From Obrimoposthia wandeli (lineage: Eukaryota), in contig CDROCS010002657.1 of the NCBI GenBank assembly GCA_977020255.1, forward strand, positions 248,001 through 312,000: a DNA stretch of 64,000 nt, read 5' to 3'. The position numbers and the translations under genes are program-made. This document shows positions 33,854 to 59,716 of the stretch, one piece after another (positions within the stretch are counted from its first letter, which is position 1; every line of letters begins with the position of its first letter). The notes beneath the pieces are model-generated. The model ran no database searches, was not told the origin of the DNA, and was given only the letters and a program-made list of their open reading frames with translations.

Positions 33854-34619
33854 TGTTTCGGAGCGGAGGATAGAGTATAAAAACATAAAACTTCATGTAG
33901 AGCCTTTATTGAAACATAAACTATAATTCATCTAAATCTTTCATTGATTTAATTTAAACTTTTAAAAATATCCTTACCATAACAACTTGACTTCGATACA
34001 TCAATCACTTACATTTACATTACTTTTTATCACCAAAGTTAACTTAAATTAACCTGTTACAACACATAAAATATTTACATGAAATTTTACATAAAAAGAT
34101 GACGTCTCCAGATCCATTACCGCCCATCATCGTCATCTCACTGCCTACTATTGAATTTATTTCTAAAAGTATTTTAATATATTTTTCTCTTTCTTCTTCA
34201 ACATTCTTCTTCCAATTTGATCAGACATAATCAATCTACGGCTGATATTCTTTTAACGTCCTCTAGTGGTGTTAATCTCTCATCATTATCGCGTGGACCC
34301 AATCACATACTAACTTTTTGATTCAGCATCTGACAGGTGATAACTCCAATGAGTTATATCCACCTTCTTCTGGGAGTTCGGAAAAGACCCAATGCTAATT
34401 TACACAGTAAGATGATTCTTCAGACCAGTTTATCACTTCTAATATTGCAATCTCACTCCAGCGTCCATCTCCTCGTCTCTAATTTCCCATCTGCTCCTAA
34501 TTCCCAGTTACCTCTCTCTCTTGCTTCTCTATTTGCACCTCACGACCAATAATCGATCAGTAACGCAGTGTGCGTGCCTATTTTGTCTCGGTGCTCCAAA
34601 GGCAAGTAATTCCTTACTT

Positions 34620-36232: not shown

Positions 36233-37060
36233 AGTAGGTAGATGTGACACTTCTGGAACAAAGCCCCCCCCTGAGGACAAGCTCAGGTCAAGTTGAGGAC
36301 AAAAAATTTTAAGGTCAAGTTGAGGTCACGGTGAGGTCAAGATGTAGGTCATGACCTCATGAGGTCATGACCCCCCCTATGCTTAGGAAAAATGTCTTTG
36401 TCCTGAAAGACACACATCAAGTAGGGGGATATTTTTTTTTGAGCATACCCCCCCCTTGAGCACAGTTTAAGGTCACGATGAGGACATGACCTCATGAGGT
36501 CAACTTAAGGTCACGGTGAGGACAAGATGTAGGTCATGACCTCATGAGGTCAAGTCAAGTTAAGGTCAATGTACTTTAAGGTCAACTTAAGGTCATGACG
36601 TCATGAGGACAACTTAAGGTCACGGTGAGGTCAAAAAGATTCTATTTTTAGTAACATACTTTAAATCTATATATATTTTTATCTAAAGGTGGTTTTAACA
36701 CCAATTTAACAAAATACATCTCGTGTGTGTGTTTTATAATTTATTTAAAATATCTACTTATAAAATAAAGTATTATATAATTTGATAATCATGTTTAAAC
36801 GTTCCTATATCTATCTAACAAAGACAGTCACGCATCTATATTGCAAATACTTGCATCTTTATGTAATCAATAGTAACATTTATTCTTATACATGTATATA
36901 TGTGTGTGAGTATCTAACAAAGACAGTCACCAATACCTACAAAGACAGTCACGTGTGTGTCTAACAAAGACAGTAATCAATACCTACAAAGACAGTCACG
37001 TGTGTCTAACAAAGACAATCATCAATACCTACAAAGACGTACTGCATCTATATTGCAAAA
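36233..37060 (+). repeat. Left TIR of the Polinton
   Basis: Matches the reverse complement of 51717-52422 at the tip and in the inner AT-rich part; the middle AGGTCA array differs. The inner limit is approximate. Confidence 0.85.
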
Positions 37061-37170
37061 ACCTGCAAATTTATGTAAATAATTTTTAAAATAAAGACAA
37101 GTATTTCTAACATATATATTCCTTAAAATCACAAAGGAGAATAAAAATATGTACAACACATATAAAAAGT

Positions 37171-40100
37171 TTATACAACCTCGTCCGGGTATAAAAAGTG
37201 ACCATAGGCGACTGAACGGTTTTTCTCCACCCACTTGCGCTTATCATCACTACTGCTTAAGGCAATTTTACTTAACCTTACAGTAAAAAGTTGATGATTT
37301 AGCGAGCTTATACGTTGTTGTTGTACACGCTCGCTAACGCCACTCTTATAGACAGCTAAGTAATTAGAGTGCCTAATACTCGTCTGTCGGAGACTAATAC
37401 CTTTCGCTCTCATCTGAGATTCACCTTCTGTAGTCTCTAGGCTATATGATTTTGGTCGTAGAAAAATCCCTTGCCTATAACTAAATAATCCCTTAATATC
37501 ATCTTTAAATTTTCCTATCGCTGTATTAAGCGTCGTATAAAGCGGATGGGTTTTTGGAAATTTCGAGGTATCCAACAGTCCATCAGCAATCATAGCAGGT
37601 AACAGTGATTCTTGAACATTGACATTATTACACTTCAAGAAAAATCTATCAGTGTCACCCGCTATAATTCTAATGTCGCAGTTAAATTGAACTCGATATT
37701 TCTCCAACTGCTCATATTGTAGCTCATACATACGAAGTTTGCTTAAATCTAATACCTCCTGGCCCATGTAACTAGGACGATCCAAAACAATATTTTCCTT
37801 ATCCAGTAAAACTGCAATAAGGTCCGTATCGATTTCGATTGTCCTACGAAAGTGGGCTTTACTGCAATAGGTAACCAGCTTCTGTGGAGTATTACAAATC
37901 CGGAGGTTAATTCTTTTCATCAGATTCTCAATGAGTTTTCCAAATAAAGAATTCACCTTCAGTTTGTAGTAATCCCGCTCGAAATCTGTTGTAACCGCAG
38001 CTCTTTTGAGAGAATTATCCTCAATATATTTTGAAAAAACATTAGTTTGTTCAAACTGTATTGCTCTATATACAAAATCTACCTTAGCACCAAGTCTAAC
38101 GTACATTTGTAGCAATCTAGAATGCACAACATAATGTTTCTTAGGGTAATGTGTTAATAACAATTTTTCAGTCTTACACCCTGGTGGACTCTGTTTAATT
38201 GGAGCAAGGGGAAGATCGTCGAATTTATTATGAAGCTCGTTGGGAATGGATAAATCTATTTCCAATAAATGAGCGAAGCGACTACAGGATAAATCTACTG
38301 ATTTTAAGCTGGAAATAATATTCCCCAACTCTAACCGATCAGTCACCCAGGAAAAGTTACCACAAGGTAAAAACTGGGACATAGCCCACCCGTACAAATT
38401 ATTTACATCAATGTACAAATGTTCTGTACCATTGATGGCGTCCACTATGGTGTTCATTAACAAATGTCATACCCCCGCATATCCCGGGCCGGAAGAGTCG
38501 GTACATTTCTGGATCCTGTATTAGCTCGACTCGCACAACGGGAGCAGAAGAAGAAGCCGGACGAAGCAGGGATTTGAAAGCACTCGCGAAATTCAGTCCT
38601 GGAAATAAAAACATTTATTAAAATCATTGTGAAAATCATTGTGAAAATCATTACTTTGAAAATCATCTATCTAACAAAGACAGTCACGCATCTATATTGC
38701 AAATACTTGCATCTTTATGCAATCAATAGTAACAAGTACTACATTTATTCTTATACATGTATATATATATATGTGTTAGTGTCTAAAATTAGAAAAAAAT
38801 AGAAAAATACAAACCAGGGATGGAGAAGAAATTGAGTGGCTCCAATCCATCGTCAGTAATGGCCTTGGTCCGGAATGCTGTAAACACGTATGCTAGAAGG
38901 TATACGTCTATCTTCATATAGACCAGCATATAGTCCCAGAGCGATGAGCAGCCGCTCTGAGTCCAGACCATCTTCGCCATTTCATATTGTGCTGGCTTGA
39001 TCTTCTCATCCCACTTTGGCGGTAAGCTGGTGATTGCGCGAAGAGCAGTCTCTGATACTGCCATATTGTATGGGAAGATTCCCTTGGCGCTCACCAGATG
39101 TTGCGGGAAGACCGAATGTGTAAGAGGAGTCACACCCAGGTTTTCCACAAGTTTTTCAAGTCTGCTGTTCAAAAATTGAAGGGAATCGATGAAACGTATA
39201 CAGACTCCTCCAATATACACCATCATAGCCTGGAATTTCTCTGTTGATTGAGGTATAACAGATACATTCCAGTCAGGAAACTTGCACGGTGCGTGCTTCA
39301 ATATGTGGTGCATATGTAACCCATAAGATTGTGAAAAATGACGGGAAAAGACCGATTGATTCTCCTTGATAAGTTGCATTTCGTATGCGCTGCTCCCAGG
39401 TATTCGCCAGTCATGTGATCGTGATCTCGAACTTTGTTTGTGAGTTTCTTCTTACACAGGTAACAGATTCTTGCTGCATTGAAACTCGATACCTGTTCCT
39501 GTGTGAGTTGTCGCATCACCTCGATCGCATGCTTCTTGTACCATGGGAGAACAACCTCTTTCGCCAAGTCCTCTAATTTCTGCAAAAAGTATACCACACA
39601 AGATTCCCCGGTAAAGACCGAGTAATCATGTGTATACCCTCTCGTGGCTGCAACGGGAGACATGAGCATACCGGCCGAGATTGGAAGCTGAATCTGATGG
39701 TGGATTCCATGCGGCGGTAGCACAGCCTCAAAGTCCGCGTAAACAGCAAAAGGTGGAGAAATCGTTTTCAAAAAGTCCTTAAACTCAATATGCTTCTCTG
39801 TAGGCATTGAATAAAGTGTTGTATGATCTAAATTCATCCTACAGAGCGGAACGTGTTTGGCGTAACTTATCGGACTACGGAATCCATGAAGACATTTATG
39901 GCACCAAGTACACCGAATGCAATTAGATACACCTTTGTTCCTATAATTAAGCAGCCTATTGAGTTTAGGAATACCGATATAATGAAAATTATCATTATTT
40001 TCTAAAAGGAGAAGATTGATTGGTTTAGCGTCCGGGTTTGTGGTCCTGTAAATCACATCCACATAGGGATTTTTGAAGATATCCCCATCTGTTTGCACAT

Positions 40101-40791
40101 TAGAGAACCTATTGAATGTAAATACGTTGATTGAGAGAGATGGATTCTTTCTCTCAAATCGCGGTATATTACATAGACGCATCGGCATCTCATTCTCATC
40201 AAAAACTAACTGACTCAAAAAGGCATCATATTGATTAACCCGATGAGGATTAGAGCGAAATACTTCACGGAAAAGTACAGATAAGATACTGTAAAGGAAG
40301 CAAAAAGCGTTTGAGTTCTGCACATTGATAACGCAATGTGAGAGTGCTAACTCAGATGGAGTAGGTATATAACTACTTCCCTGGAGATAGTTCATTGTTG
40401 TTTTAGTCACAACAAACGAAATCTCCAGGAAGCGGTTCACTACCCAATTACTACTACTTTGAGAATAATTCTCAATCTTCTTGTTGATCCCATCTACTCC
40501 CGCATCTATAAACCCCTCATCTATGGGGAGCCCTCTATTGGAAAAATTCCAAGCGCGTGTTTCTCCAATATTGGAAAATTCAACACGCACCCCGAATTGA
40601 ACCTTGCAAGTTGCAAACATGCTGACTGTGTCCCTTAAGCTAGTCAAAAGTGATACAGGAACTTGTAAATCGATGAGATTGTCATTAGAAACATCTAATG
40701 ACAATGTCTCAATCGTGCCCCGAAGACTAGTCTTACGCTTAACAGCATCAACCCTGAAAAACTTCGCAACATAGCTACCTGAAGTGGGCAT
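37171..40791 (-). pseudogene. polB: Protein-primed family B DNA polymerase with one intron (38599-38814) and two 1-nt frameshifts (~39316, ~38450)
   Basis: Exo motifs YADFE, FHNLMGY(D), YMKID; polymerase motifs YIDVNNLYG, KLKVNSLFGK, GDTDR (usually DTDS), PKSY, AKGI. Also an endonuclease VII-like CYLC...RDHDH...HTKCN segment and an N-terminal OTU-like Cys (FCFLY)/His (FHY) region. Confidence 0.95.
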
Positions 40792-40800
40792 AACACTTCT

Positions 40801-41242
40801 CTAACGGGTAGATGCTGGTAACGGCGCGGGGATCATACCAACTGGAGGAGGCATAACTGAAACCATTGGTGCAGCAGATGATGGTGAAGCAACTGGGGTA
40901 GTAACAGCAGCAGCAATTAAGGTAGCAATTGACGAAGCAGCAACAACTGGACCAGCAACCCGAGAAATAGTAGCAGATCTATTCTGAAAGATGGCCTTCT
41001 TGCCACGTTGCTGGAAATGACGAAGATGGACACGATGACGCGCCACAAACTCCGGCCAATCAATCTCCTCCGCGGAGAGACATACTGGACATACGTAGAA
41101 TTGTTGTCCTTTGAACTTCTGTCCAAAGTAGCTCTTCATTTTTCCGTCACATTCCTTGTGACTCTCCTCGAAGCATTCTTTGTTCATATTGCAATTCTAG
41201 AAAGAAATAAATTAGCTGAAAAAATAACAATAAACTTACCAT
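40801..41242 (-). CDS. Small Cys/His-rich Polinton protein with Pro/Ala/Ser-rich tail; probable 43-nt intron after the ATG
   Basis: ATG(41242-40)|GTAAGT...TTTCTAG|AAT TGC AAT ATG joins in frame with ORF 40801..41187; CPVC motif; TATATAAGC upstream. Confidence 0.65.
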
Positions 41243-41373
41243 TTTCAATTTCGTTTATAATAGGGGATTATTTGTTGATTGATGCTTGCTTATATACTAT
41301 TTTCGAGCTAGTATTAAGCCAATCAGATTCATACATTATTTAAACCAACCAGATTAATTTAAAACAGAATAGT

Positions 41374-41883
41374 TTACTGACAGATGTGAGTAGTTGAATT
41401 TTCATTAATATTTAAATAATCCAAACTAGCTGCAAAGCATTTCTTGTATGCACAATGCTCGCCATGTTTAATATATGGACAATTGATATTTGATGGATTT
41501 AATTGTTTTAATGTTTTCGAGTAATTTATCACTCTAAATTCAGGAAAATATTTATTGATTGTCTTTATTTTAGCTCCATTATTTTCATCCAAAACATAGA
41601 AAATTGATTTGGATACATCACAACAACGTTTTATTTCCTCAGTTATTTCTTGTATCTTGAAATAACTATTACCATCAACTAGTTTTAATCGATGGTAATG
41701 CTTAATGAGATATCTATTTATTTTTCTTGATTTTCTATTCATCATGTCCCATATGGGTTGCTTTTTAAAAACATAATGTTTGGGATAGAAGATTGCATCC
41801 ACATCCATTATACATAGTTCTTTTATTACAAATTCAGTATTATTATCAATAAAAGCTTCAAAATCAATAAAATAAACAGACAT
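41374..41883 (-). CDS. DEDD/DnaQ-like nuclease-fold protein with C-terminal Cys/His cluster
   Basis: N-terminal YFIDFEAF (D-x-E) followed by IKEL, and C-terminal CPYIKHGEHCAYKKC. Intact ORF of 169 aa. The fold call is motif-based only. Confidence 0.55.
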   Translation of the reverse strand: MSVYFIDFEAFIDNNTEFVIKELCIMDVDAIFYPKHYVFKKQPIWDMMNRKSRKINRYLIKHYHRLKLVDGNSYFKIQEITEEIKRCCDVSKSIFYVLDENNGAKIKTINKYFPEFRVINYSKTLKQLNPSNINCPYIKHGEHCAYKKCFAASLDYLNINENSTTHICQ

Positions 41884-41920
41884 TTTTTATAGCAATAATT
41901 TTGTTTGATATTGTTTATAT

Positions 41921-42298
41921 CTATTGTTTATGCTTTAACCAAAGCAGACATAGTTGTCCACATGAGTGCGTTAAAACATTTTGATAATGTTTCTTACTAA
42001 AATGTACTTTCTTTCCAGAATCAAGTACTGTAGATACTAATTTAGAAGGGTAATATATCCCAAAGGGGTCAAAAACAAAGATTTCATTTTCTTTAACATG
42101 TATTGCAATCCAATGTTCACCACGCAAATTAGATGAATGTGTATTGATTACATATCCACCTAGTCGAGTCAAAGAGGGGATGTGATCAAGACTGTAGACT
42201 CCATTGAAATGCGAACCGAGTAGTTTTCTTCCGCTTTTTGTTATCTCGTCCGAACTAGAATATATATTAATTAATAAATTCAAACTGATTTACTTCAT
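41921..42298 (-). pseudogene. Adenain/Ulp1-like maturation cysteine protease
   Basis: GEHWIA (His), FDPFG (Asp), YQ...SCGQLC (Gln/Cys). The in-frame ATG at 42298 is followed by TAA at codon 3. Confidence 0.9.
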
Positions 42299-42327
42299 TT
42301 ATATCTTCTTTATTGTTTTCATTCTGT

Positions 42328-43537
42328 TTATACTAGTACTGTTCCTCCCTTGGTAATTTGAACCTCAGAATCGAATACTCCATAGATTATAATATTAGTA
42401 GGATGTTCAAGTGCTTTTGAAAACTTGATTTCTACTTTCAAATTTCCCTGTTTAGGGATTTGAGCTTGATTAATATCGAAATCAGGAGAGAGAACAAATG
42501 TGAACAGTGTATACTTGTCCTTGAAATCAGTCATTGAAATTCAAATATTAGCATCCTTATCCAAATGACCAAGATTTCTAATTAAAGATTGCACATAAGA
42601 AAACACATAATCATCGTTTTCAAAGTCATTCGTATAAGATTCTTGATAATCAATATTTCGTGCAAGTTTAATTGAACTCACATTCATGTGTCCAAATTGA
42701 GAAACCTCATTTTTAGACTCACCTCCATAGGTAGAAGTGTTTTGGAAAGCAATTAAAACAAAGTTTGGAAGTTGCATATCACCAAAAATCTGATCCCGTA
42801 GGGATAGCGTTAGAAACAAGATTAGTTTTTCTAATAGGATAACATGCATTTTGCTTCTCCAACCCTATTCGATGTGCAACGAGTACAGATGGTTCCACCT
42901 TTACTCTTCGAACCAGCAGTTTTGCTTCCGTAATCTCAATTGCGGTTTTAATAGTATCGTCGTAAACAACACTAAAACCTACTGGATTTCTCTTCATTCG
43001 AATATGTGCACTTACACCGAGTAAAAGATACTTTGGTTGCTTAAAGAAATCCAACTGGAGACTCCCACAAAGTGACAATACTTTAGACTTTGCAATCGAA
43101 GCAGTTCTTCTTTTTTCATCATTGTCAAACCCAATTGCATCAAGATTAATCAATTTCGTATCATTACCGTAATTCAGTAATGTTTCAATCATTGCTTTAT
43201 GAGTGTAGCTAGTATTATTTCCCTCAACTTTCACATTATTGAGACTGAGAATCACATCCTTGAAAAGAGTATGCAACATGTAATTAGCTGATTTGATATC
43301 CATACCATCATCCAAATCACCTCCACCTTCCTTTGTAACTTTCAATTTAACGAGAAATAAACTATCATTCAAATCAAGATATTGAGTATTGGATCAATTA
43401 ATATTGAATTCTAAATCCGGAGAAGATGTCCCGTTAACCGTATTTGTCGGACATATTTCTTCAAAACTAGCACTATCAACCACAACCTGAGGTATAGGTT
43501 TATCAAATATACACAATTCAGTTTTAGCACAACTCAT
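42328..43537 (-). pseudogene. Major capsid protein (double jelly-roll)
   Basis: MSCAKTELCIFDKP...LEFNIN*SNTQYLDL...FKDVILSLN...AMIETLL...AKLLVRRV...FTFVLSPD...IYG. In-frame TGA at ~43395 and ~42541, and a frameshift at ~42790. Confidence 0.9.
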
Positions 43538-43899
43538 TACTTAAAAATTGTTCCACCTAGTTTCAAACGTTTGTTTATACCCGATGCTTTAGATGTTTTC
43601 TTACGTTTATAACCACTTCCCTTTTGAGTTTTCTTTTTCAAAAATTCAGCTAGACTTGGTGAAATTTCATTCACCTGATCCAAGGCTGCATCCTTTAGTG
43701 TGGGAAGAAATTTCTCATCACTTGACAAGTATTTTGATCCAACATTAGCAATAAATTTCCCGAGTCGCTTGAGTAGTGGGAAAGCAAAGCGACCTAAAAC
43801 CTTCATCCATCCTGATCCATACTGTTTTCCCGCAAAATAAGGCAAATCACCTCCTTGCATCGGTTTACTATACGCATCGATTATACTTGAATCAATCAT
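43537..43899 (-). CDS. Small basic virion protein with amphipathic helix (between minor and major capsid genes)
   Basis: QGG...FAGKQYGSGWMKVLGRFAFPLLKRLGKFIANVG...QKGSG; position and Gly motifs as seen in Polinton structural modules. Confidence 0.7.
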   Translation of the reverse strand: MIDSSIIDAYSKPMQGGDLPYFAGKQYGSGWMKVLGRFAFPLLKRLGKFIANVGSKYLSSDEKFLPTLKDAALDQVNEISPSLAEFLKKKTQKGSGYKRKKTSKASGINKRLKLGGTIFK

Positions 43900-44918
43900 A
43901 ATTTACGAAAATGAACCGTTAAACTTGTTTTAGCTCCGTAAGCAAATGTAATTAATCTTCCAGAATCATTACGTATATTAACTTAAATATTGTTTATAGA
44001 AGAAGAACTCACGGGAATATACTTTGGATTTTCAATTGGAATATGTATAACATCACCATACTTGTGCTTTTCCTGTTGAACCCAAATTGCTTTAATTAAG
44101 AGAAGTTTCCTTCCTCCTACGAATATTGGTTCGGTAATACTCGTGTAGATATAAATCTGATTATATGCATTAGTCATTTTAGGAAAAATCTTTGCTTTGA
44201 AAACCTCATTTTTATTTTCAAATTCATTTTCATCAAAACCGATAATTGAGGCTAATTATTTATCCATGATGATTTTATCAATATTGGATTTCAATTTGAA
44301 ATGAATCAATTTATTAACTAGTTTAAAGTTTTCAAATACATTTGGTAACACTGTTTTAAAATGTTTACACATACTTTTGCTATCGGCAAAAAGAAAATCA
44401 TTGGGAACTGAATATATTTTCCTCTCGCGTTTAACGAATCTGTTTTTTATCTTGAATGTAATTATCGGATACTTGACATGATTATCCATAATTTGTGAAA
44501 CTGCATGATTTCCTTTTTCAACTTTAGACGGAAATCCATATTGTTCTGCAACAATTTCATCATTAAAAATTATTTCAAAATTATCCCCTTTTTCCATAAT
44601 TTGAATTTGATTCTCTTTATTTAAATAGATTGTGAAATCATCGCCTGACTTAATACGAGCCAAATCCATTTGACCCTTATCAAATAGTGAAGTCACATCA
44701 GTTACTTTATCAGCTTCACGTTGGGTAATATATTCAATCTCAGTTTCACTTTGAATAGATAGAGGAGAGTAATTGAAAGAAAATTCCGTAAGAGCAGCTT
44801 CCCAAGCACCAGGTAAATTGATTGAGCTTTGATAATCAATACTAAAACTATTAGCAGTATTATTCGGCTGATTTAATGGCGAACCATTACTTGGTAATAC
44901 AACATACGTTGAGTTCAT
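43896..44918 (-). pseudogene. Minor capsid (penton-like) protein
   Basis: YVVLPSN...NNTANSF...INLPGAWEAALTEF...IYIYTSITEP...YIPV...I*VNIRNDSGRLITF...LTVHFRK. In-frame TAA at ~44256 and ~43983. Confidence 0.85.
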
Positions 44919-45886
44919 TCTATTTGAGAAGCTAATATCCAACTAGGTTCAGTATATCCATGCCACTTAACATGATATTGTTTATGCTTTCCTCTACCTT
45001 TTGTCTCTAAAATTTCTTGGATTCTATATACATTCGGTTTCTCAGACAAGACTTGTAATTCCTCATGATAAAATTTACCCGTGATTACATTATTGGTTTC
45101 ATCCTCAATGAAATACATTACCGGCACACGTTTATTATCAATTTTAGTTATACGAAATACTTCATCGCTCCAATTCTCTTTGAAATTCTTTATAAAAGGA
45201 GTAGTACTAATTTGAGAAATACGTACATAATCACCAACTTTATACTTGGGTTTCCGTGCAACTTGACTTTGGTTACGGCGTTGCCAAATTTCCATAGCAT
45301 TCTCATCTGTAACATCAACGGGTCTCTTTCGGTCTAATGATGAGTGTTCACTATGATTGTATGCATGTATTATTTGAGGTAAAACAGTAACCCAGGACTT
45401 ATTTCCCTGCTTTGTGAAATACTTTTTCAAACGATCTCTCAATGTTCGATTAAAACGTTCAACTAAAGCGGCTTTATATTGGGAAAATACTGAGTAATGA
45501 TTAATATTATGTTTTTTCAATAGTGTTTCAACATGTTTATTATAAAACTCCTTTCCACTATCCGTTTGGAAATTTCTTGGTTTTATTTCTTTAATCAAAA
45601 GCTTCATTGCGGCTAAAACATAGGTACCAGACTTAGACTTTAATGGAATAGCTCGCGCGAATCTGCTAAAGACATCAACACAAGTTAAAATATATCAATA
45701 TCCGTTGTTAATACTAGCATACGGAATCATTTCCATCAAATCTGCTTGCCATAAATCATTCGGGCCGCTCGTTTTGTATGATCTCGTTGGGAACCGACGT
45801 CTCATTGGTTTGTTTAAGCTGTAAGCTAATTTTGAAACCCCTTTGTAACCAACGGGGTGACTTGGATCGAACCATATTTTCTCCAT
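44915..45886 (-). pseudogene. Retroviral-like DDE integrase with C-terminal chromodomain
   Basis: WQADL, QTDSGKEF, VERFNRTL, and YHVKWHGY...SW (chromodomain). One in-frame TGA at ~45695. Confidence 0.95.
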
Positions 45887-45983
45887 TGCAGTAAGACGAT
45901 TTGATTTTTAAATTATATTTAGGAATAGATGGAAGTGATCCCATATATAAATTCATATTATTGATTCGAATTTATGTTTATAA

Positions 45984-46406
45984 TCATCGGTTTATTAGTC
46001 TACTAGCAAGTGCACCAACTATTGAGCTAATAATTGGTACGAGAAATCCTAAAAATCCACCACTTTGCTTATAAAGCAACTTACGTTTACCGATTCGTGT
46101 TTTGGCGTGAAACAAAGCAAGTAGAGGTTTCTTATGCCGATTCAGGTTAGCCTTGACAATTATTTTACCAGAAACTATTTTCTGTATCATATTAAGTAAA
46201 TCATCAATTACAAAAGTAGGGAATGATTTAAGAATAGCTGGGCGGCGAATAGCAGGTGCACGCATGAGAAAATTGAAATAGGCAATACTCCTAGATTTCT
46301 TAACAACAGTTCTTTTCGATTTTTGAGCAACCATTTTCCTTGCACTTAAAACTGATTTAATCAATTTTTTAACTTCGGGTTTAACAGTTTCCTTTTTAAA
46401 ATTCAT
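45984..46406 (-). CDS. Basic core/virion protein
   Basis: Lys/Arg-rich, ending KRKLLYKQSGGFLGFLVPIISSIVG, a typical Polinton small structural protein tail. Confidence 0.7.
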   Translation of the reverse strand: MNFKKETVKPEVKKLIKSVLSARKMVAQKSKRTVVKKSRSIAYFNFLMRAPAIRRPAILKSFPTFVIDDLLNMIQKIVSGKIIVKANLNRHKKPLLALFHAKTRIGKRKLLYKQSGGFLGFLVPIISSIVGALASRLINR

Positions 46407-47054
46407 CTTCTCAAAACTGGTTTCTTTGTTTGTTTATAGACGGTTATTCCCGATGGATTGAATACATCAGTTCTAACTCTAAAGTCATCGGGACAATCTT
46501 GAGTAAAAATCAATAAAAATGTATCCATGAGGAATAGTAGTTGCATCTTGAAATGAATCAATTAAAAACTTTCTATTATTCGGGTAAGCTTGTCTTGAAA
46601 CAAAATCAACAATCGTCTGATCACGTGGATTCTTGAAGAGAACAAGATAATGTACATTTAAATTACGAGTTCTATGGTTCCCTCCTTGATGAAATAGATT
46701 TTGTGTGATGAAAATAACAGTTACTTCCCGATGTCGTGCTATTTTAGTGAATAAATTATTGAAATCACTCTCTTTATTTGCTTCTTGATATAAATCATCA
46801 ATAACAATAACATCATGTCGTTGTAATCGCTCAGACCAATTATCATCGAATCCATTAATGACTTTTATATTTTTGATTTTCTTAAACTCTTTACTGGTTA
46901 AACCAGCTTCTCCATCTCCTCCCTGCTTCCAATATATTTTATTAAACTTAAAGGTAAAGTATTTATTATTTTGTAGTAATTTACATACAAAATGTGTTTT
47001 CCCACTACCACTAGGACCTACAATCTGAAAAACTGAATTATTTTCTAAGTTCAT
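46403..47054 (-). pseudogene. FtsK/HerA-type packaging ATPase
   Basis: GPSGSGKT, VIVIDDL, ARH...ITQNLF, LFKNPRD. An extra T in a T-run at ~46505 shifts the frame; the corrected tail DFTQDCPDDFRVRTDVF...LRR* ends at 46403. Confidence 0.95.
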
Positions 47055-47097
47055 ATTAAAAATATTAGATTATCGGAATAATGTTTATAAGACAAAA

Positions 47098-47382
47098 CTA
47101 TTTAAAATATTTTATTACGAAACATCCAGCAACAAACAATAAAAAACTCTTCTTGTAGAAAAAGCTCCTTTTCTCTTCTTTCTTTGCACATTCTTTCTTC
47201 TGATTGTATCCATGAATGAGAAGATTGACTGCCTTGTCATGCACCATTCTTCTTACGTGCTCCTCCAGGGGTAGATTTGAGACATCAATGAGTTGCAGGA
47301 CATCTGGTTCTATGACATTCTTCGAGATGAAGCTCTTCACCGCCTTGTCAACATCTTGCTTGAAATAGTTTGGAGTAGACAT
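47098..47382 (-). CDS. Orphan ~94-aa helical protein with C-terminal hydrophobic tail flanked by lysines
   Basis: The ATG at 47382 sits 30 nt after TATATAAGC; the protein ends FFYKKSFLLFVAGCFVIKYFK. Confidence 0.65.
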   Translation of the reverse strand: MSTPNYFKQDVDKAVKSFISKNVIEPDVLQLIDVSNLPLEEHVRRMVHDKAVNLLIHGYNQKKECAKKEEKRSFFYKKSFLLFVAGCFVIKYFK

Positions 47383-47443
47383 AATGATGATGAAGAAGTA
47401 AAAAGTAATCTGCTTATATACTATACATCTGAAATCTGATTGG

Positions 47444-47580
47444 TTAATAAAGACTAATAAAGACACTGACTAATAAAAACACTGACTAATAAAGACACAA
47501 AGACACTGACTAATAAAGACACTGATTAATAAAAACACTGATTAATAAATACACTGATTAAAGATAAAGACGAATAAAAT
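47444..47580. repeat. ~16-bp tandem repeat (GACACTGACTAATAAA), ~7-8 degenerate copies
   Basis: Directly visible between the 47098 ORF promoter and the phosphatase stop codon. Confidence 0.85.
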
Positions 47581-48306
47581 TTACACATGATAACGATTAA
47601 AAATACGTATTTGATGAAGCATAGCTTCATTAGGAGCAGCAATAGTCCGTTTAGCTTTAACAAGATTCGAAGCAGCAGTAACACCAATCGAATGAGATAA
47701 AAATGCAATAACAATGCAAGCAGCATGTAAACTACCATAATGACTACATACTAAAATCTTACCACCATTTTCGATAGTTTCTTTAATTATATTATTAGTC
47801 TGTTTATAATACTTCATTATTGTTTCTCCTAATTTTGAGTTTACAAAGACAGAAGTATATTTTAATTTCTTATAAGATATTTTATCCAGTATAGATGTAT
47901 TGATTACATGAGTGAAATTGGAGTTCAAAAGATTAGTTTCATCAAACCCATCTCGATAATTATCAATATATAATTGATTTACTAAAATCTCACTCATCAC
48001 GGTTTTGTTTAACTTTTCTACATTATGTTGAGTAAATCTAGCACTAAACAAGCTATCAAAAAGATGGGTCATGTGGTTCATTTCCATACTCGAAGCATGA
48101 GCTATTATGGGTTCCATAAAAGCCAAAGCATTTAAAAAATCTATCCGTCTCTTATCTTCAATAATTGGATCTATAATAATTTCTTCTTCTATCGTCACTT
48201 CATCAATAGTTTCTTCTCTTCTTATAACTGTTGTTGTTGTTGCTGGTGATGATGTTGTTGCTGGCGATGATGTTGCGGCTTCTGGTGCTGAATTGATTTT
48301 CTCCAT
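47581..48306 (-). CDS. Dual-specificity phosphatase-fold protein, catalytically dead
   Basis: MSEILVNQLYI...THVIN...GGKILV-CSHYGSLHA-ACIVIAFL...VKAKR...PN...HQ. The HCxxGxxRS loop is replaced. Confidence 0.85.
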   Translation of the reverse strand: MEKINSAPEAATSSPATTSSPATTTTVIRREETIDEVTIEEEIIIDPIIEDKRRIDFLNALAFMEPIIAHASSMEMNHMTHLFDSLFSARFTQHNVEKLNKTVMSEILVNQLYIDNYRDGFDETNLLNSNFTHVINTSILDKISYKKLKYTSVFVNSKLGETIMKYYKQTNNIIKETIENGGKILVCSHYGSLHAACIVIAFLSHSIGVTAASNLVKAKRTIAAPNEAMLHQIRIFNRYHV

Positions 48307-48626
48307 TTTATCAATTCCCAGTCAATTTAGTCTTATATATATATTAAACGAGGTTTAATTTCATAGGAGCATCAGTTTCATCATATGATTTGATTGGAGT
48401 ATTATTCAACCTTTCCATTGTACTTAACAACTCATGTAAATGTATTTGATGACGTAACCTAAAGAGTTAAATAAACTACATATAAATATTACTCATGATT
48501 ATTTTTCCTAATTAAAGCATTGAGAATAACTGAAGCAAGATCTTTTAATGCATCCTGAACCTCTTTACATTCAATAATTTCATTCATTTTATGATAAAGC
48601 AAATCAAATATTGTTTATAACCCATG

Positions 48627-48845
48627 AAAAATCTATTTTTAGAGCACATTACAACTATTTGCAACATTACAACGTTTGCAACTATTTGCAAGTAATGACA
48701 TGTGATGTCTCTAAGAGAAATCTATTTTTAGACCACATTACAACTATTTGCAACATTACAACGTTTGCAACTATTTGCAAGTAATGACATGTGATGTCTT
48801 TGTCTCTAAGAGAAATCTATTTTTAGACCACATTACGACTATTTG
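48627..48845. repeat. ~90-bp internal repeat, 2.3 tandem copies; a further copy at 50467-50537
   Basis: AAATCTATTTTTAGACCACATTACAACTATTTGCAAC...GCAAGTAATGACATGTGATGTCT. Confidence 0.9.
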
Positions 48846-49363
48846 GTTTAGGAAATAAATAACACAAGTGTGGAGATCTATATTAAATAAAATACATTCA
48901 ATCAGATACTCATAGTTTAAAGATTTAAAACCAAGTATCATAATCTTCCCGCTAGCAAAAATGTTCACGCATAGGGGATTGTATTTGATGTATCGAAGTC
49001 CCGGGAAGATTTCTGGCTCGTAAACAGCTTCCGATCCCATACTCTTGCTCATCTTGTTTAGGTTTATTGATGTTTCTAGCTTGCTGCTGAGACTGATTGA
49101 TTGCATTCTTTCGATTTTTATATCAAAAGGAAGACTGCTTTCATCCCGCACTGTTTTGCAACCCATTATTCTGCATGTACCTAAATTATAATTATATATA
49201 AATGTAAAAATAAATTACCAGATTTGAAAATGATAATAGTGTAACCTTCACACTTGAGTCGATACTGATGAGGCTTCGAAGTCCGAAATGGTAAGTGTTG
49301 AATGTTACTTACAACCATTCCCTTGTAATTAATATTCACTAATTTGATATTGTGAAGTAGCAT
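48771..49363 (-). CDS. TATA-binding-protein-like (two TBP repeats), two exons 49363-49219 and 49180-48771
   Basis: Splicing the 38-nt GT-AG intron gives IIFKSG|TCRIMGCK, parallel to the repeat-2 segment NIFASGKIMILGFK. YEPEIFPGLRY matches TBP YEPELFPGLIY. Confidence 0.88.
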
Positions 49364-49426
49364 TTCTGATTATTATAAACTGATTTCTTCTATTTATACT
49401 ATTTGAACATCTATTTTTAGATTTGT

Positions 49427-50423
49427 TTAATTGCCTATGCTATGAAATCTAATATTTCTTACTCGTCTAATGATAATTGTCTTGCAATATGGACATGTAA
49501 TAAAACGATCTGAACATTTAATACACGTGTTTAAGTGACCACATGGTAAAAATGCCACGGAAATCGCATCGCTCATGCAAACAACACATTCGGGATTTGG
49601 TAAGAGGTACTCAAGATAATTTATCCGATGTGTTGGTTCAGATTTTATTTCTAAAGACCTTAAATCCGTTATAAACTCATATATAGAATCATATTTGTTA
49701 CCGAATGTTTTAAACCTATTAACTAAAACGGCTTTGATTCTATCATGACTGTAATCACGTTTCAGCAAAACTATTTGACGAGTTTCCATCTGAGCATCAA
49801 TGTCATCATTACTAATATGATATTCAACAATACATCCGTTCTTGATTCCCATACTAGATGCTTTACAATCTCGAGTATGAAAGATAAGACATAGTATCAA
49901 TAAGGTCAAGTCGGGGTACTGCTTTCCGACAGAAACAACATCGATAAGAATCATTCCAAATATATACATGATCGAAAATCGATAATGTAGGTATTTCAAT
50001 ATCATTAGAATAATTATTGCGTGCAATAACAACTTTATCCATTGGAGTTGTATCAAAATCAATTTGGGTGGTGCTGGAATCAATTATTGGTACGTTTGAA
50101 ACATTCATTTTCAAAACAAACGGACATCTTGGGAAAAAGAGCTGATGCTGTTTCATTGGTTTCAGATAGTACTCCCATCCCGATATTCCTCCCTGACAGT
50201 AAATACACTTTACATTATCTTTCGAATCATCGTGCTTGTAAAATCCTGCTTTTGCTAAAGCTTTCTTATCGGCTAAACCAGTAAACTTTGTTTGTAACGA
50301 TTCTAATCTTCTTTCTTCATATATCATATTTTCATTTATTCTTGAAATATTATCAAAACGCCGTCGTCTAATGGTGAGTTCTCCGTTTTCTGAAACATAA
50401 TGTGCAATAAATTTAGTAGTCAT
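49427..50423 (-). pseudogene. iap: Inhibitor of apoptosis (BIR, UBA-like, RING), one frameshift at ~49885
   Basis: RLES...LAKAGFY...DNVKCIYCQGGISGWE...PMKQHQLFFPRCPFV (BIR); CVVCM...FLPCGHLNTCIKC...CPYC (RING). Confidence 0.92.
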
Positions 50424-50554
50424 AACAAAATTGAATGATGAAATTGTCTAGCTTATATAGTAAGTGAAAATCTATTTTTAGACCACATTACAACTATTTG
50501 CAACTATTTGCAAGTAATGACATGTGATGTCTTTGTCTTAGTATAAACAATATT

Positions 50555-50782
50555 TTGATAATGATTTTATTGAAAATGGTTAATCAAAATAATCAAAATA
50601 ATGAAAGTAGAGCTAGTACATATAAAGGTTCCGGTAGTAATTTATATTCTAATATGAATTATAATAGAAATAATCAGAGAGAAAATATTAATCCATCAAG
50701 TCAAACAATAACAAGTCCTACGCGCTTAACCGAAGAACGTGAGCCCTTTAAGGATATGACTAATACTAGACGATTTTCATAA
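50555..50782 (+). CDS. Small Asn-rich orphan ORF
   Basis: Divergent from iap, with a TATAAA just upstream; low complexity, no recognisable motif. Confidence 0.35.
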   Translation: MIMILLKMVNQNNQNNESRASTYKGSGSNLYSNMNYNRNNQRENINPSSQTITSPTRLTEEREPFKDMTNTRRFS

Positions 50783-50895
50783 ACAAGAATGTTAACCAAT
50801 TGAGACTAATCGATTTTCATAAACAAGAATATCGACTAATTAGAATCGACCTTTAGAGGATAAACAATTGAATATTTCAATTTATAATTGTCAAT

Positions 50896-51276
50896 ATGAA
50901 TTTCGAAAAGCTATATCAACCTATGCATACATATTATGGATATGAGATGCACTTTTTGAAGAAAGCTCATAACTATAATTTTATTTTCCCCGTCAACATT
51001 GAGCCGCTTAAATTTGATTTTGAAATATCAAATTTGACTTCTGTGGATAAAGAGAGAATCAATATTCAATTTGGAATCAACTATGCGCTTCAGGAAAACA
51101 AATTCGTAATCAAAGGATCAACTGCCACTTTCAAGCATGAGAATGGAACAATATACGAAGCACCTCCTCCTAAGCTAGAATGGATTATCTCAATCAGAAT
51201 TCAAGGATGCAAGATCGGGTCCAGTGGATTGGAAACTCCGATATGGAAAATAATTGATGCTGTTAGAGTTGACTAA
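50896..51276 (+). CDS. Polinton accessory protein, predicted beta-rich (possibly OB-fold ssDNA-binding)
   Basis: Intact 126-aa ORF with alternating hydrophobic pattern, ending ISIRIQGCKIG...PIWKIIDA. The function is a guess. Confidence 0.55.
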   Translation: MNFEKLYQPMHTYYGYEMHFLKKAHNYNFIFPVNIEPLKFDFEISNLTSVDKERINIQFGINYALQENKFVIKGSTATFKHENGTIYEAPPPKLEWIISIRIQGCKIGSSGLETPIWKIIDAVRVD

Positions 51277-51340
51277 TAAATTTTTGTGTCTTTATTTGTA
51301 TTATTTTATATATATAAACAATAGTGATACTTTAATATTT

Positions 51341-51712
51341 ATTATGAAAATGACTAAAAAACCTACTAAATCATTAAAGTCGAAAAAGGTTAAAAAGACT
51401 ATGAGTAAAAAGACTATGAGTAAAAAGAAAATCATGGAGGGTTTGGGTATTCATATGATGGCAGCAAATCTTTTAGGTAGATGGTTTGGCGGAGTTGATA
51501 AAAAAGCTATAAAGCACAAAAAGAATGTGGATTACATGAGAGGTATACAAAATCAGAAACGAGTGCAAATAGGAGATGGTATACAAAAAGGGGATGGTAT
51601 GCTTGATATTTTTGTAAAATTAGATAAACTTACAAAAGCATTTGAAAAGGATCCTAGTGCCTATCTTGGTCCAAAACTAAACTTTTTAGCAAACCGACCA
51701 AAAACTTTGTAA
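51341..51712 (+). CDS. Lys-rich basic protein with QxGxG motifs
   Basis: MKMTKKPTKSLKSKKVKK...QIGDGIQKGDG. The start is inferred downstream of a TATATAAA at ~51310; the ORF track starts at 51254. Confidence 0.6.
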   Translation: MMKMTKKPTKSLKSKKVKKTMSKKTMSKKKIMEGLGIHMMAANLLGRWFGGVDKKAIKHKKNVDYMRGIQNQKRVQIGDGIQKGDGMLDIFVKLDKLTKAFEKDPSAYLGPKLNFLANRPKTL

Positions 51713-51716
51713 TTAC

Positions 51717-52422
51717 ATTGCAATATAGATGCAGTACGTCTTTGTTAGACACTCACACATATATATATATATATACATGTATAAGAATAAATGTTACTAT
51801 TAATTACATAAAAATGCAAGTATTTGCAATGTAGATGCGTGACTGTCTTTGTTAGATAGATATAAGAACGTCTAAACATGATTATCAAATTATATAATAC
51901 TTTATTTTATAAGTAGATAGTTTAATTTAGTTTAAATATATTTTTCAAATTATATAATACTTTATTTTATAAGTAGATAATTTAATTTAAATTATAAAAC
52001 ACACACACACGAGATGTCTTTTGGTTAATTGATCTTTTTGACCTCGCCGTGACCTTAAAGTACATTGTCCTCATGACGTCATGACCTTAAGTTGACCTTA
52101 AAGTACATTGACCTTAACTTGATCTTAACTTGCCTTGACCTCATGACCTACATCTTGTCCTCATCGTGACCTCAAGTTGTCCTCATGACTTTAAATAAAA
52201 AATCATGTGTACTCGGGAGAAATTTGACCTACATCTGTCATAAAAAATTTGAGTTCAAAAATTTTCGCGCTAATTTCAAAAATTTTGACCTATATTTCAA
52301 ATTTTTCGCGGAAATTTCAAAATTTGACCTAAATTTTTTGTCCTCATCAAAAAATTTGACCTAGATTTTTGACTTGTCCTCAGGGGGTGGGCTTTGTTCC
52401 AGAAGTGCCACATCTACCTACT
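51717..52422 (-). repeat. Right TIR of the Polinton
   Basis: Inverted counterpart of 36233-37060, with an extra internal duplication (about 51880-51990) and a different TGACCT sub-array. Confidence 0.85.
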
Positions 52423-52948
52423 GGCCTATGATTCCCAATCATATCCCCACCACTGATTGCGCACTTCCTCTCTTGGACTTCAATGCTCGACCTCCATATT
52501 AACTCTTCAACTCTTTCATATCTCCTAGAAATGTTGTATCCACCTTTTCCTGGGGTCACGATCCTTGCGTTTGGATGCACACTGTCCCTGCCCTCAACCG
52601 ACACTGCGAAGCATCCCTGCGTCAGACGTCGTCTATAGGCCTCGGCCAATACCGGCTGAGGTAGTTTCTCGGATCGTGCCTGCCATCCTTTAAAATCCTC
52701 CATATATTCTCCCTCACTTCGTTCCTTAAAACAAACCTGCGATTTTATATTACCAAGTACTTTATCATTACTTCAAGTTGAAAATTGTGGGCACATATGA
52801 GACAACGGCAAGGGGCGGGGAATAAAAACAGTGATCAAGGCCTAACCTCCAGCTGCGACTTGTCCATTACAAAGGGTTCCAGCTGTCCATTTTGTCCCCT
52901 ATATCCAACTTCTGATCCTCTCGCACGACCAATTTGATCTCGTCTTCA

Positions 52949-55290
52949 TCCAAAAATGCAACGTGCAACAAATGCATGAAAACCGGACACTTCTTCAGCG
53001 CCTATCTGTCGAGAAAGAAAGATACAATCAACGTAGCGACATATCTGGCAAATGCAGTCATCAAATCCCCAACAGGACTCCAAAAAGCAATAGGACAAAT
53101 AAAGATCCTCGACGGGTACCACGATGCACTAATCAACATAGGAAGCGAACTCAGTTTCATCGACGGAAACATAGTTAAGTTCATCAAATTATCAAGCCAA
53201 ATATGCCAATATCTCTGGCATCCAACAACAATAAAACAATCCCTACAACGTTCTGTTTCATGGATTTTGAACTAGACAATGTGCCGTATAGAAATCAACG
53301 ATTGAACGTACTGGATAACCTATGTACCCCAGTAATCCTTGGCCAAGACTTTATGAAAAAAGATTTAATCAATAACCTTCAAATTTGACGGATAGATTCA
53401 ACCGCTGACATTAGCATCCATCTTACCAATACATTTTGAACCGCCACGAATCTTCGAGAACATGAGAGACGACGTATTTTCCATCGCAACCAAATCAAGA
53501 ACCTACTGCTATTCAGACCTGAACTTCATAAAACTGGAAGTCGAATAATTATTAAAGGGTGGTATCATCGAGAAATCATCGTCCTCATGGAGAACTCAAG
53601 TACTCGTCACAAACAGGAACATGAAGAAGCGTCTAATTATCGACTACTCACAGACGATCAACAAATTCAGCATTTTAGACGCGTACCCATTACCTAACAT
53701 GGACGAACTAGTGCGAGAAATATCAAAAAACGAATACTTTAGCAAACTGGACCTGCGATCAGCCTACCACCAGGTACCTCTGCACCCAAACGACAAAATA
53801 TTCATGGCTTTCCAAGCCTCCGGTAACTTATATCAGTTCAGACGCCTACCATTTGGAGTTACTAATGCCGTCAGCGCTTTCCAACGGACTATGAACAACA
53901 TTATCGACGATAACAATCTACGCTTATTTAGATGATATAATCATCGTCGGAACATCACTAGAAGATCAAGACGAAAACGTCAATAAATTCCTTGAAGTAG
54001 TTAAAAAAATCCAAATCTCGCTCAACATGAATAAATGATTGCTTCAAAAAATGTCCATAAATGTTCTTGGATATCAAATCGAAGAGAATTCAATGCGCCC
54101 TGATCCAGAAAGGTTAAAACCAATTACTAATTACCCATTACCAACCAATACAAAGGAATTGCAGAGACTACGTGGACTCCTGAGCTATTACGCCAAATGG
54201 ATACCATCCTTTTCAGACAAAATCCAACCTCTTCTGAAAGCCACATTTCCTCTGCCCATGTCAGCAAAAACTGCACTCTTTCAATTGAAAAAGGAAATTT
54301 CATCATACACACTATCTCAATCAAACTCAATCTCCCAATTGAAATTCAAACGGATGCTCCAAAAACTGCCTTATCAGGAGTCATGCAGCAAGAACCTATT
54401 GCATTCGTTTCCAGAACCCTGAACTCGAGCAAAGAAAGATTATCTTCAATCGAGAAAGAAGCTATGGCGATCGTCGAAAGTGTGCGAAAATGGAGATCAA
54501 TATTGATCACGAACCACTTTTCAATCAAAACTGACCAAAGGCGCTCTCGTTTATCTTCAATCAAAAAAGAAATGGAAAAACTAAAAATGACAAAATTCTT
54601 CGATAAAGAATTGAGTTGTCCTTATATTCCTACAACGTAACACACATCCCAGGCGAACTCAATCTAGCTACAAACGCAATGTCCAGATGCAACACGATCA
54701 AATCCAAAACGGTTCTTAAACTCCATCAAGCGTTGGGCCATCCAGGAATTACGAGGCTCTGGCATTTCATCAAAAGCAAAAACCTCCCATTGTCTATAAA
54801 AGAAGTTAAAGACGTTTGCGAAAATTGCAAAACATGCACAATTCTCAAACCACAATAGTACCGACCCGAGATGTCACAGCTAATAAAATTGATGCGGCCC
54901 TTTGAAAGATTGAGTATCGACTTCAAAGGTCCGCTACCGCAATCCGGCCCTTACTGATACCTCCTAGTGATGATAGACAAATATTCCAGATTCCAGTTAG
55001 CCTACCACTGCAAAAACATGGAAGCACACACAGTAAAAACGTGCTTCCTCGATCTCCACATTCGGGTGTCCTTCGTCAATTCACACCGATCGAGGTACCC
55101 AATTTATGAATCAAGAAGTCAGGGAATTCTTAACGAAGCACAACGTCGCCCAAACCCGAACAACACCATATCATCCATCAGGAAATGGTCAAGTAGAGCG
55201 AATAATGGGACACTCTAGCAAACTATATCTTTAACTCTACACAACAGAAACCTAACCCCATCTTCATGGAAAGAGGTTTTGGAATGAAGA
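52949..55290 (+). pseudogene. Gypsy pol (protease, RT, RNase H, integrase), fragmented
   Basis: ALINIGS (protease site with D>N), YPLPNMDEL, FSKLDLRSAYHQ, LPFGVTNA, YLDD, IEKEAMAIV, H-x3-GH...CENC, IDFKGPLP, PYHPSGNG. Many stops and frameshifts. Confidence 0.9.
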
Positions 55291-58200: not shown

Positions 58201-59716
58201 TATTCGAACATTAATAATTACGATTTTGATGAAGAGTTTGATGTGGTAGACTCGTGGTAGCCGGAAAGTATTGTAGAAATTATTAATAATCCTGAAGTTG
58301 TAATTTATGAGACTTTAACCCCTAATCAAATTACATGTGAACCTTTAGAAAGTACTAATGAAATCATAAATAATATATTGATGAACTTATAGATCAGGAC
58401 GAGTTTATAACAGAAAAGGATTTTTTCGACTCGCTCCTGACTATTACAGATGATGACTTTATGATATTGTTTTAATTAATGCCGCTAATACATTAACTTT
58501 TAACAATCAAACATGAGGTGCAATTCAATCAAACCTTATTTTCGATGTAAATGGGTTAAACATGCTTAAACTATTCATTAACGATACTATGCTAACAGAA
58601 CGTACTAGCAGTATAGATATGTTTGGACCATGTAAAATACAGTTTGATTTTAAAACCGAATTTGTCAATAATGAGGGCCAAGATAAAACATGACATGTAA
58701 GCTGTAAAGCAAATATTTTTGAACAAGATTTTATCACTCCAAGACAGTTGACTAAACAATAAAATTGAAATGTATAAGGATATGAGCATGGGATGATCAG
58801 TATTTAAAATATTGTTGGTATCCTTTAAATTTACTGCACTTACAAGTGTATCAGGATCATCATTTATAAAAACCCTGGTTGCGCTTGCTAAAACACTATC
58901 TATAGTGAACGTAAATAATACTTATGATCAGTGTTTTAAATACGCTGTTCTCAGTATCCTACACTATAAAGATCACAATCGAAACAGACATAGAGTTGTA
59001 CACTAAAATGATTATTTAAATGAACTAATATGCGAGCCTGGTCCTATGAGGATAGACTGCATCAAGGCGTTGAAAAACTAAATAATATTGGGATAACAGT
59101 ATTCTACTATAAATCTACAAAGGTAGTGCCTCATAGTAGTTATATAGTGTTTAAAAACCCATATGTTAACGTTATTTATAGAACAAGTCTTAAACAGTGC
59201 GAAAAAGCAGTAAACTTGTTGCTGTTGGAACAGAGAGGTAATTATCACTATACAGGGATTACAAACCTGAACAGACTTTTAAATACTCAAAAATATAATG
59301 TGCGTCTCTTTTGGAGTGAGAAATGTCTTTTCGGTTGTCGAACCACCGTATCATATGACAAACACAGGGCTCATTGTAATATTAATACAGATTTAACAAC
59401 CTTGTTTACGATGCCTAAAGAGACCAAGTGTCAGTTTTCTGACTGGTCTAAATCTGTTGCGCCACCATTTGTTGTCTATGTCGACTTTGAATTAATACTT
59501 GGGCCGCATAATACTTTCAAACACATTCATAAACCGATATCTATAGGGATGATTTTGAAAAACAACACTAATAATTCAATACAATGTTTCAGTTATTACG
59601 GTCTACAGTGTGCTAACATCTTTATAGATTAATGGTGAAGTGACAGATTTTTGGGCAAATAGTATTAATGTTCCTATGATTTTTACTAATAATGACATGT
59701 TGAATTTTAGAGATTG

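Follow-up and report, generated by a model that had tools for sequence, protein, structure and literature searches.

A Maverick-borne pseudophosphatase with a dual-specificity phosphatase fold, lost catalytic residues, and a predicted lack of activity

This locus raises the question of whether a mobile element can carry a dual-specificity phosphatase (DUSP) that has given up catalysis and, if so, what such a protein would be for. The gene is a 241-aa open reading frame (ORF) at 47581..48306 on the minus strand of the window, by which we mean the whole 64-kb stretch of DNA that was analysed, and it was recognized by ORF call, Pfam, and a structure model. A first-pass annotation had described it as a mobile-element pseudophosphatase with a DUSP fold, a description that held up in its three parts: the Maverick context, the fold, and the lost catalytic residues.

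The predicted fold and the element that carries it

The Pfam family DSPc matched residues 112 to 237 of the ORF with 45.8 bits against a curated cut-off of 33.5 (E 6.8e-12), and the solved structures nearest to the ORF by sequence were DUSP19, DUSP22, and DUSP10 (33 sequences at E ≤ 0.01). The fold of the predicted model is the DSP alpha/beta fold. For the domain alone (residues 93 to 241), the model reached a pLDDT of 91, a pTM of 0.86, and TM scores of 0.79 to 0.85 to human DUSPs including STYX; it rests on an 83-row alignment of canonical DUSPs and is little informative on the true shape of the loop. The full-length model matched DUSP14, MKP-2, SSH2, and STYX with Z 22 to 23 and an rmsd of 1.6 to 2.0 over ~140 residues. 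Within the ORF, the DSP domain takes up residues ~101 to 241 (47584..48006, minus strand) and was modelled with high confidence (pLDDT mostly 86-98 per block). Residues 1 to 100 (48007..48306, minus strand) form an N-terminal extension with a Ser/Thr/Pro-rich and acidic stretch followed by predicted helices at residues 47 to 100, which were helical in the full-length model at low confidence (pLDDT ~60), and no Pfam family was found in residues 1 to 100 at E 0.1. Just 3′ of the ORF lies a 16-bp tandem array (window 47436-47586), possibly a regulatory or recombination site of the accessory zone. An 89-bp repeat between accessory genes (48626-48845), with a further copy at 50448-50532, may also represent such sites.

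The ORF is located in an element of 16,190 bp (36233..52422) that is bounded by a perfect 6-bp target-site duplication (TSD) and by imperfect terminal inverted repeats (TIRs) of ~700 to 800 bp, which repeat comparison placed at 36233..37058 (left) and 51718..52422 (right); the termini start with AGT and end with ACT and are not perfect (AGT)2. The other genes of the element are also on the minus strand. They comprise a protein-primed DNA polymerase B (pPolB) in several frames (37171..40791; DNA_pol_B_2 above cut-off), an adenain-like cysteine protease frame with no ATG start (41921..42289; Peptidase_C5 at E 5e-4, below the curated cut-off), interrupted genes for a probable major capsid protein (42331..43537) and a probable minor capsid protein (43899..44924), both named from gene order, a stop-interrupted rve integrase with a chromodomain (44915..45889; Pfam, with rve above cut-off in relatives 57-61% identical), and an A32-type packaging ATPase whose frame is broken near the 3′ end (46421..47054; Pox_A32 above cut-off). 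Two further accessory genes were recognized by Pfam, a TBP-like gene in two frames (48771..49342) and an IAP-like gene made of BIR and RING frames (49427..50423); BIR and RING sit in two overlapping frames, so the IAP-like gene is probably interrupted in the window copy. No Pfam family matched the putative major and minor capsid ORFs, which are conserved and fit in size and order. The gene order integrase, minor capsid, small ORF, major capsid, protease, given for Mavericks in passages of PMC8097293, is the same in the window. By its sequence features (TIRs, TSD, pPolB, integrase, ATPase, and a weak protease match), the element is classed as a Maverick/Polinton.

The Maverick is inserted inside an LTR retrotransposon (33105-36232 and 52423-55483, with RT and RNase H) whose repeat pair at 33105/55391 measures 93 nt and is 92% identical. 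A second, far more decayed Maverick fragment follows at ~55533-63025 (TBP-like gene, capsid piece, and pPolB with many stops), and no second DUSP was found within the 64-kb window, this fragment included. Elsewhere in the window there are a Tc1-type transposase (23207-24139) and tetraspanin-like exon frames of at least two divergent genes (2310-2588, 14303-14605, 27209-27442, and 28780-28995; weak Pfam matches for two), which together suggest an animal as the probable host.

The active site in the window copy and in its sister copies

To be an active Cys-based phosphatase, a DUSP needs the HCX5R motif. When the ORF was aligned with DUSP19, the P-loop at residues 187 to 195 (47722..47748, minus strand) aligned without gaps and displayed His>Cys187, catalytic Cys>Ser188, Ser>Leu193, Arg>His194, and Ser>Ala195, which bears out the earlier reading that Cys and Arg are replaced by Ser and His in this copy. 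Among the best 150 relatives, 146 cover the loop, with Cys at 188 in 139, Arg at 194 in 143, His at 187 in 137, and Ser at 193 in 143; the ORF has neither this His nor this Ser. The motif is thus absent (Ser188, or Gly in the sister copies, and His194), and so is the general-acid Asp, a point missed by the first-pass annotation: residue 157 (47836..47838, minus strand) is Ser in the ORF and Asp in 138 of the 146 relatives. Replacement of both Cys and Arg was observed in 0 of the 265 other DSP domains with a loop (267 domains aligned, 256 of them canonical and 1 ending before the loop). Without Cys, Arg, and Asp, which catalysis needs according to passages of PMC4322731, catalysis is predicted to be impossible. 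A shifted register with Cys187 as the nucleophile was rejected: position +6 lacks an Arg, and the alignments contain no gaps.

The losses are concentrated at the active site. Among 27 columns with a conservation of at least 80%, the ORF kept 0/6 at the active site compared with 16/21 elsewhere (Fisher p 0.0016), a test in which rows were chosen by their likeness to the ORF, inflating scaffold retention. The five changed scaffold columns are hydrophobic swaps, one of them Met for the active-site-aligning Phe of MKP7; at the MKP7 Phe287 position, Phe stands in 233/233 relatives and Met in the ORF. That the scaffold motifs of DUSPs are retained, as had been claimed, is confirmed by the DSPc match above cut-off and by the 16 conserved columns kept outside the active site, and the ORF combines the two marks of a pseudophosphatase, lost catalytic residues and a kept fold. 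The accompanying claim that the loop needs many nucleotide changes stands for the whole site, where the six active-site positions need at least nine substitutions together, and fails for the Cys>Ser and Arg>His that were named, for which the minimum is one each.

Could the dead loop reflect decay of this one copy? The intact 241-aa frame had been taken to argue against decay, and the ORF is indeed open, but this is weak evidence. Private changes of the window copy against a family majority (≥90% share) account for 24 of the 40 listed sites, or ~0.8% of 2,901 bp; across four ORFs they comprise 4 synonymous and 14 non-synonymous changes, as in neutral decay. When judged against the ORFs of two near-complete relatives, six neighbouring genes are interrupted in the window copy (pPolB, integrase, both capsid genes, ATPase, and TBP-like gene), and a 241-codon frame would stay stop-free with a chance of ~77% at ~0.8% divergence (a rough estimate with no indels). 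Since the neighbours are broken and survival by chance is this high, the open frame alone proves little.

The sister copies are more telling. Contigs came from three runs (X1, X3, and X4) of one sample, possibly the same source as the window, four runs of which contain 81-83% of the query words; the mapped copies are those at least 80% identical to the window. Per run, 32,654 to 39,116 contigs map to 2.9 kb. Their identity bands extend from 99+ down to <90 and establish that the family has multiple copies, though not how many. Codon 188 has its first base at 47745, and there the alternative letter accounts for 258,483 of 260,171 depth in X1 (99.4%, 94 contigs), 98.9% of the depth in X4, and 96.4% in X3, and the codon then reads Gly. 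Because this alternative first base allows no Cys codon, 96-99% of the sister-copy depth excludes Cys at 188. Ser188 is private to the window copy, and the family reads Gly there, as in STYX. The first-pass annotation had considered post-insertion decay unlikely and had proposed family copies as the check on whether the dead loop is fixed; the sister copies agree with it: the dead loop does not stem from decay of the window copy, to which only the Ser itself is private.

For the other active-site positions, none of the 40 listed variant rows (there are 342 further rows) falls in codons 157, 187, 193, 194, or 195. Because the lowest variant share listed in X1 is ~48%, we infer that the window residues at these codons represent the majority state of the family, with possible minority copies carrying Arg or Asp. 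In X1, a contig ~81% identical spans 47578-47828 (251 nt; loop and C-terminus) without a gap; another divergent contig has 37 differences in 209 nt with 2 gaps, and a contig over 47935-48138 has 1 gap. By eye, five of the six listed loose ends inside the ORF (2,382 further loose ends exist) are gap-free, in frame, and free of stops, four of these five falling in the N-terminal extension, and the sixth meets a stop. Losses of one base in base runs make up 4-11% of depth within the ORF versus 2-11% within the ATPase, and the intermediate-frequency sites within the ORF are 2 synonymous and 1 non-synonymous. Contigs of a metagenome run, X5, cover the low-complexity 5′ part of the ORF and flanks only and carry no evidence on the loop.

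Related elements and the origin of the gene

An ATPase profile scan yielded at least 45 metagenome and at least 3 viral loci, of which 48 are listed (here given L numbers), and the window ATPase has 745 relatives at E ≤ 1e-10 that are up to 84% identical. DUSP genes are present in 2/48 listed loci, L017 and L004, in both of which the gene is oriented as in the window and lies upstream of the ATPase; among the listed loci that are informative (ATPase identity ≥70% and at least 1.5 kb upstream), this amounts to 2 of 13. The L017 and L004 ATPases are 77-79% identical to the window ATPase, and both DUSPs have a canonical loop. The L004 DUSP (L004:675-1263) lies in two frames, and since the related proteins P0276 and P0277 start at the same internal point, the split may be common to a lineage. 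A canonical His-Cys...Ser-Arg loop was likewise observed in 8/8 of the close kin P0272-P0279 with a loop; within the P0272 group and kin, the element context is known for P0272 and L004 only. The ORF is 20-22% identical to P0272-P0279 versus up to 33% to generic DUSPs.

In the relatives, the accessory zone contains canonical DUSP genes as well as genes of TBP-like, RING, E2-like, and TRAF-like type. The TRAF-like gene (395 aa; RING, zinc finger, and MATH) is found at L017:1545-2732 beside the canonical DUSP and a RING gene, and the E2-like (ubiquitin-conjugating) gene at L009:222-719. A TBP-like gene of ~145 aa that matches Pfam TBP is present in 12 of the 48 listed loci (L001, L003, L007-L009, L012-L014, L019, and L023-L025) and may act on host or element transcription. 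Two tandem ORFs at L009:5616-7687 both match the probable minor capsid gene. The strand of pPolB varies: it is that of the capsid module in the window and the opposite one in L009 and L019.

Searches with the ORF itself brought up no close relative. In a library of 1.84 billion representatives there were 598 matches at E ≤ 0.001, the best 150 being generic DUSPs that are 23-36% identical, and the annotated-feature search returned DUSP19-like and giant-virus DUSP clusters only. A word-index search for a close relative scored 0 of 300 candidates (132-422 aa covered). Pattern matches numbered 5 in viral contigs and 95 in metagenome contigs, with 0 confirmed in either, and there were none in phages. 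No dead relative beyond the ORF's own family was found in the representatives, viral, metagenome, and close-kin searches.

Where, then, did the gene come from? In two quick trees (58 and 25 of the 267 domains), the ORF is the longest branch, with 2.1 and 3.3 substitutions per site, and joins no named group, STYX included, in either. A Maverick-DUSP origin had a p-AU of 0.70, its constrained tree lying 2.6 lnL above the free search with long branches involved, and a STYX origin had a p-AU of 0.41, so that the test rejects neither. The spacing from the catalytic position to the Asn is 38 in the ORF, 37 in 8/8 Maverick-type DUSPs, and 40 in 210/234 generic DUSPs, of which 1/234 has a spacing of 38 or less. 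The helix region after the loop is shortened in both the ORF and the P0272 group, at an identity of 20-22%. As judged from the aligned sequences, the short spacing indel favours a Maverick-type DUSP origin over STYX.

These data bear on the idea that the protein was dead already at capture, as a diverged host STYX-like gene, or else retains some chemistry through Cys187. The family-wide Gly and the p-AU of a STYX origin would suit the former, and the lack of a majority variant for Cys187 among the listed rows would suit the latter. However, the STYX-type matches, at 18-22% identity to the ORF, have retained His, Ser, and Arg. The best tree found (lnL 2.6 higher than the free search; long branches) joins the ORF to the Maverick-type active DUSPs, with which it shares the shortened helix region, and no Arg stands five residues beyond Cys187. 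We regard this idea as the least probable account, with hardly any weight.

A second alternative is that the gene is a relic without function: an active cargo DUSP would have lost its role, drifted, and been carried along passively when the element recently multiplied in a burst. Consistent with this, a young family keeps its frames open by chance (the ~77% estimated above), no dead homologue was found in other organisms, and the related L004 DUSP is itself split. Speaking against drift are the concentration of losses at the active site (0/6 versus 16/21 columns kept), a reading frame still open on a branch of more than 2 substitutions per site, and copies with ~19% divergence that are gap-free over the loop and C-terminus, and we consider a relic quite unlikely. 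Because the active site was selectively lost, the frame is open on a long branch, and the divergent copies are gap-free, the pattern points to selection on a folded, non-catalytic protein. Taken together, the sequences indicate that the ORF is a real, family-wide, Maverick-borne pseudo-DUSP outside the STYX family and the MKPs.

Possible roles and comparison with known systems

We propose that a multi-copy family of Mavericks (Polinton/adintovirus-type) captured a DUSP as an accessory gene, and that the enzyme's whole catalytic set (Asp, His, Cys, Ser, and Arg) would have been lost before the family spread through the genome, selection having kept the fold and the reading frame. The protein would presumably be made while the element is active, and it would bind through the DSP body, through the helical N-terminal extension of ~55 residues, or through both. 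Its presumed companions in action are the IAP-like gene and those genes of TRAF, E2, and RING type that occupy the accessory zone in this clade. On balance, and by a modest degree of belief, we favor a protein without catalysis that serves as an adaptor or competitor, its partner being a host protein of a signalling or death pathway that is bound via non-pocket surfaces. According to passages of PMC8269279, the roles of pseudo-DUSPs in hosts are those of competitors, anchors, integrators, and modulators.

The first-pass annotation had instead suggested a viral decoy or trap, a protein that would hold phosphorylated MAPK or STAT in its dead pocket. Some observations are compatible with this model: the family Gly at the Cys position matches STYX, an ERK1/2 binder (PMC8622459, in part), active relatives of the fold act on MAPKs, and STYX can bind ERK without catalysis, which leaves room for MAPK binding by another surface. 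The pocket, however, has lost its phosphate-binding Arg and both loop Ser. The P-loop Arg is described as critical for substrate binding in passages of PMC4322731, and MK-STYX keeps it in an FSX5R loop (PMC8622459, in part). The STYX-type matches keep the loop His, Ser, and Arg in 4/4 cases, and the ORF keeps none. Because the Arg is critical for binding and is kept by both the STYX-type proteins and MK-STYX, a classical substrate trap is unlikely. The ORF also lacks MAPK docking elements. No rhodanese/CH2 domain with a KIM was found in the ORF by Pfam, residues 1 to 100 having predicted helices only, and a loose D-motif at residues 52 to 63 was rejected as a MAPK docking site, being at chance level (23% of shuffles have one). 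Behind the Pro-Asn motif, at residues 227 to 229 (47620..47628, minus strand), Glu-Ala-Met replaces the Phe-Asn-Phe of MKP7, so that the FXF-type docking motif expected where helix 5 starts is absent, with Glu227 at the Phe285 position and Met at the Phe287 position; Phe285 is essential for JNK1 binding in MKP7, where an acidic substitution abolished it (PMC4802042, in part). MK-STYX itself does not regulate ERK according to passages of PMC8622459. The decoy as proposed was therefore not upheld, and we think it very unlikely.

A different partner is conceivable within the element. As a virion-associated or replication-factory protein, the ORF product would bind the capsid or core proteins of the element and not a host signalling protein. 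What is probably a full morphogenesis module adjoins the gene, and there is a precedent in BmNPV PTP, a virion structural protein whose activity was dispensable for the phenotype studied (PMC3320614, in part). In contrast, a DUSP in just 2/13 of the informative relatives among the listed loci would be dispensable for the clade, and the gene sits in the variable accessory zone, outside the conserved module. We rate a virion role as unlikely.

The adaptor or competitor reading admits a more specific history, which we hold only tentatively and regard as doubtful: a Maverick lineage would have converted the active DUSP of its sister elements into a fully dead pseudoenzyme with a new N-terminal arm for binding, used together with IAP-, TRAF-, and E2-like cargo to rewire host stress and death signalling. 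If this were true, the ORF would be the first pseudoenzyme effector in Polinton-class viruses, the clade would offer a natural series from enzyme to pseudoenzyme within one viral clade, and there would be evidence that Mavericks fight host signalling like infectious viruses. Irrespective of this history, that a family-wide pseudophosphatase lies beside an IAP-like gene, and that members of the clade carry active DUSP, TRAF-like, and E2-like genes at the corresponding place, suggests that host manipulation has been selected for. The unusually complete loss of the active site (Asp, His, Cys, Ser, and Arg) with the fold kept would make it a test of what a DUSP body can do without a phosphate pocket.

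Maverick accessory genes are mostly unannotated. The element resembles the adintovirus-type Mavericks in its TIRs, 6-bp TSD, pPolB, integrase, ATPase, protease, order of the putative capsid module, and accessory region (PMC8097293, in part); it differs in that the window copy is degraded and in its phosphatase cargo, which is absent from the Maverick papers and supplements searched. No phosphatase was found as Maverick/Polinton cargo in the main texts and supplement files searched, nor did the literature search return Mavericks with inhibitor-of-apoptosis cargo, and there was no mention of a pseudoenzyme among the matches listed. The concept of a viral pseudophosphatase is already known from bracoviruses, and a Maverick-borne case is apparently unreported in the literature searched. 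In passages of PMC12912956 and PMC4553618, bracovirus PTPs are described as pseudophosphatases, one of them binding Rad9A. Those proteins (CvBV_22-9, for example) are, like the ORF product, virus-borne phosphatase folds of host derivation that are proposed to bind host proteins without dephosphorylating them, but they are classical PTP domains in wasp polydnaviruses, whereas the ORF encodes a DSP domain in a Maverick.

Among host proteins, human STYX (PDB 2r0b) is similar in having a single DSP domain and in the Gly that the family copies carry at the catalytic Cys (Z 22.2, rmsd 1.6, 139 residues). It differs in that STYX-type proteins keep His, Ser, and Arg, whereas the ORF, at 18-23% identity, is without these or the general-acid Asp, is borne by an element, and has an unrelated N-terminal extension. 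MK-STYX/STYXL1 shares a dead DUSP domain in which the His-Cys pair is replaced, but it has the Arg (FSX5R) and a CH2/rhodanese domain, according to passages of PMC8622459, and the ORF has neither. The Maverick DUSPs of L017 and L004 have the same place upstream of the ATPase in the accessory zone and the same orientation as the ORF; they and P0272-P0279 have a canonical loop where the ORF has a dead one, at an identity of 20-22%, and any common descent is putative. BmNPV PTP, finally, is comparable as a captured DSP-fold phosphatase with a non-enzymatic role (PMC3320614, in part), but BmNPV PTP is still an active enzyme, whereas the activity of the ORF product is predicted to be lost.
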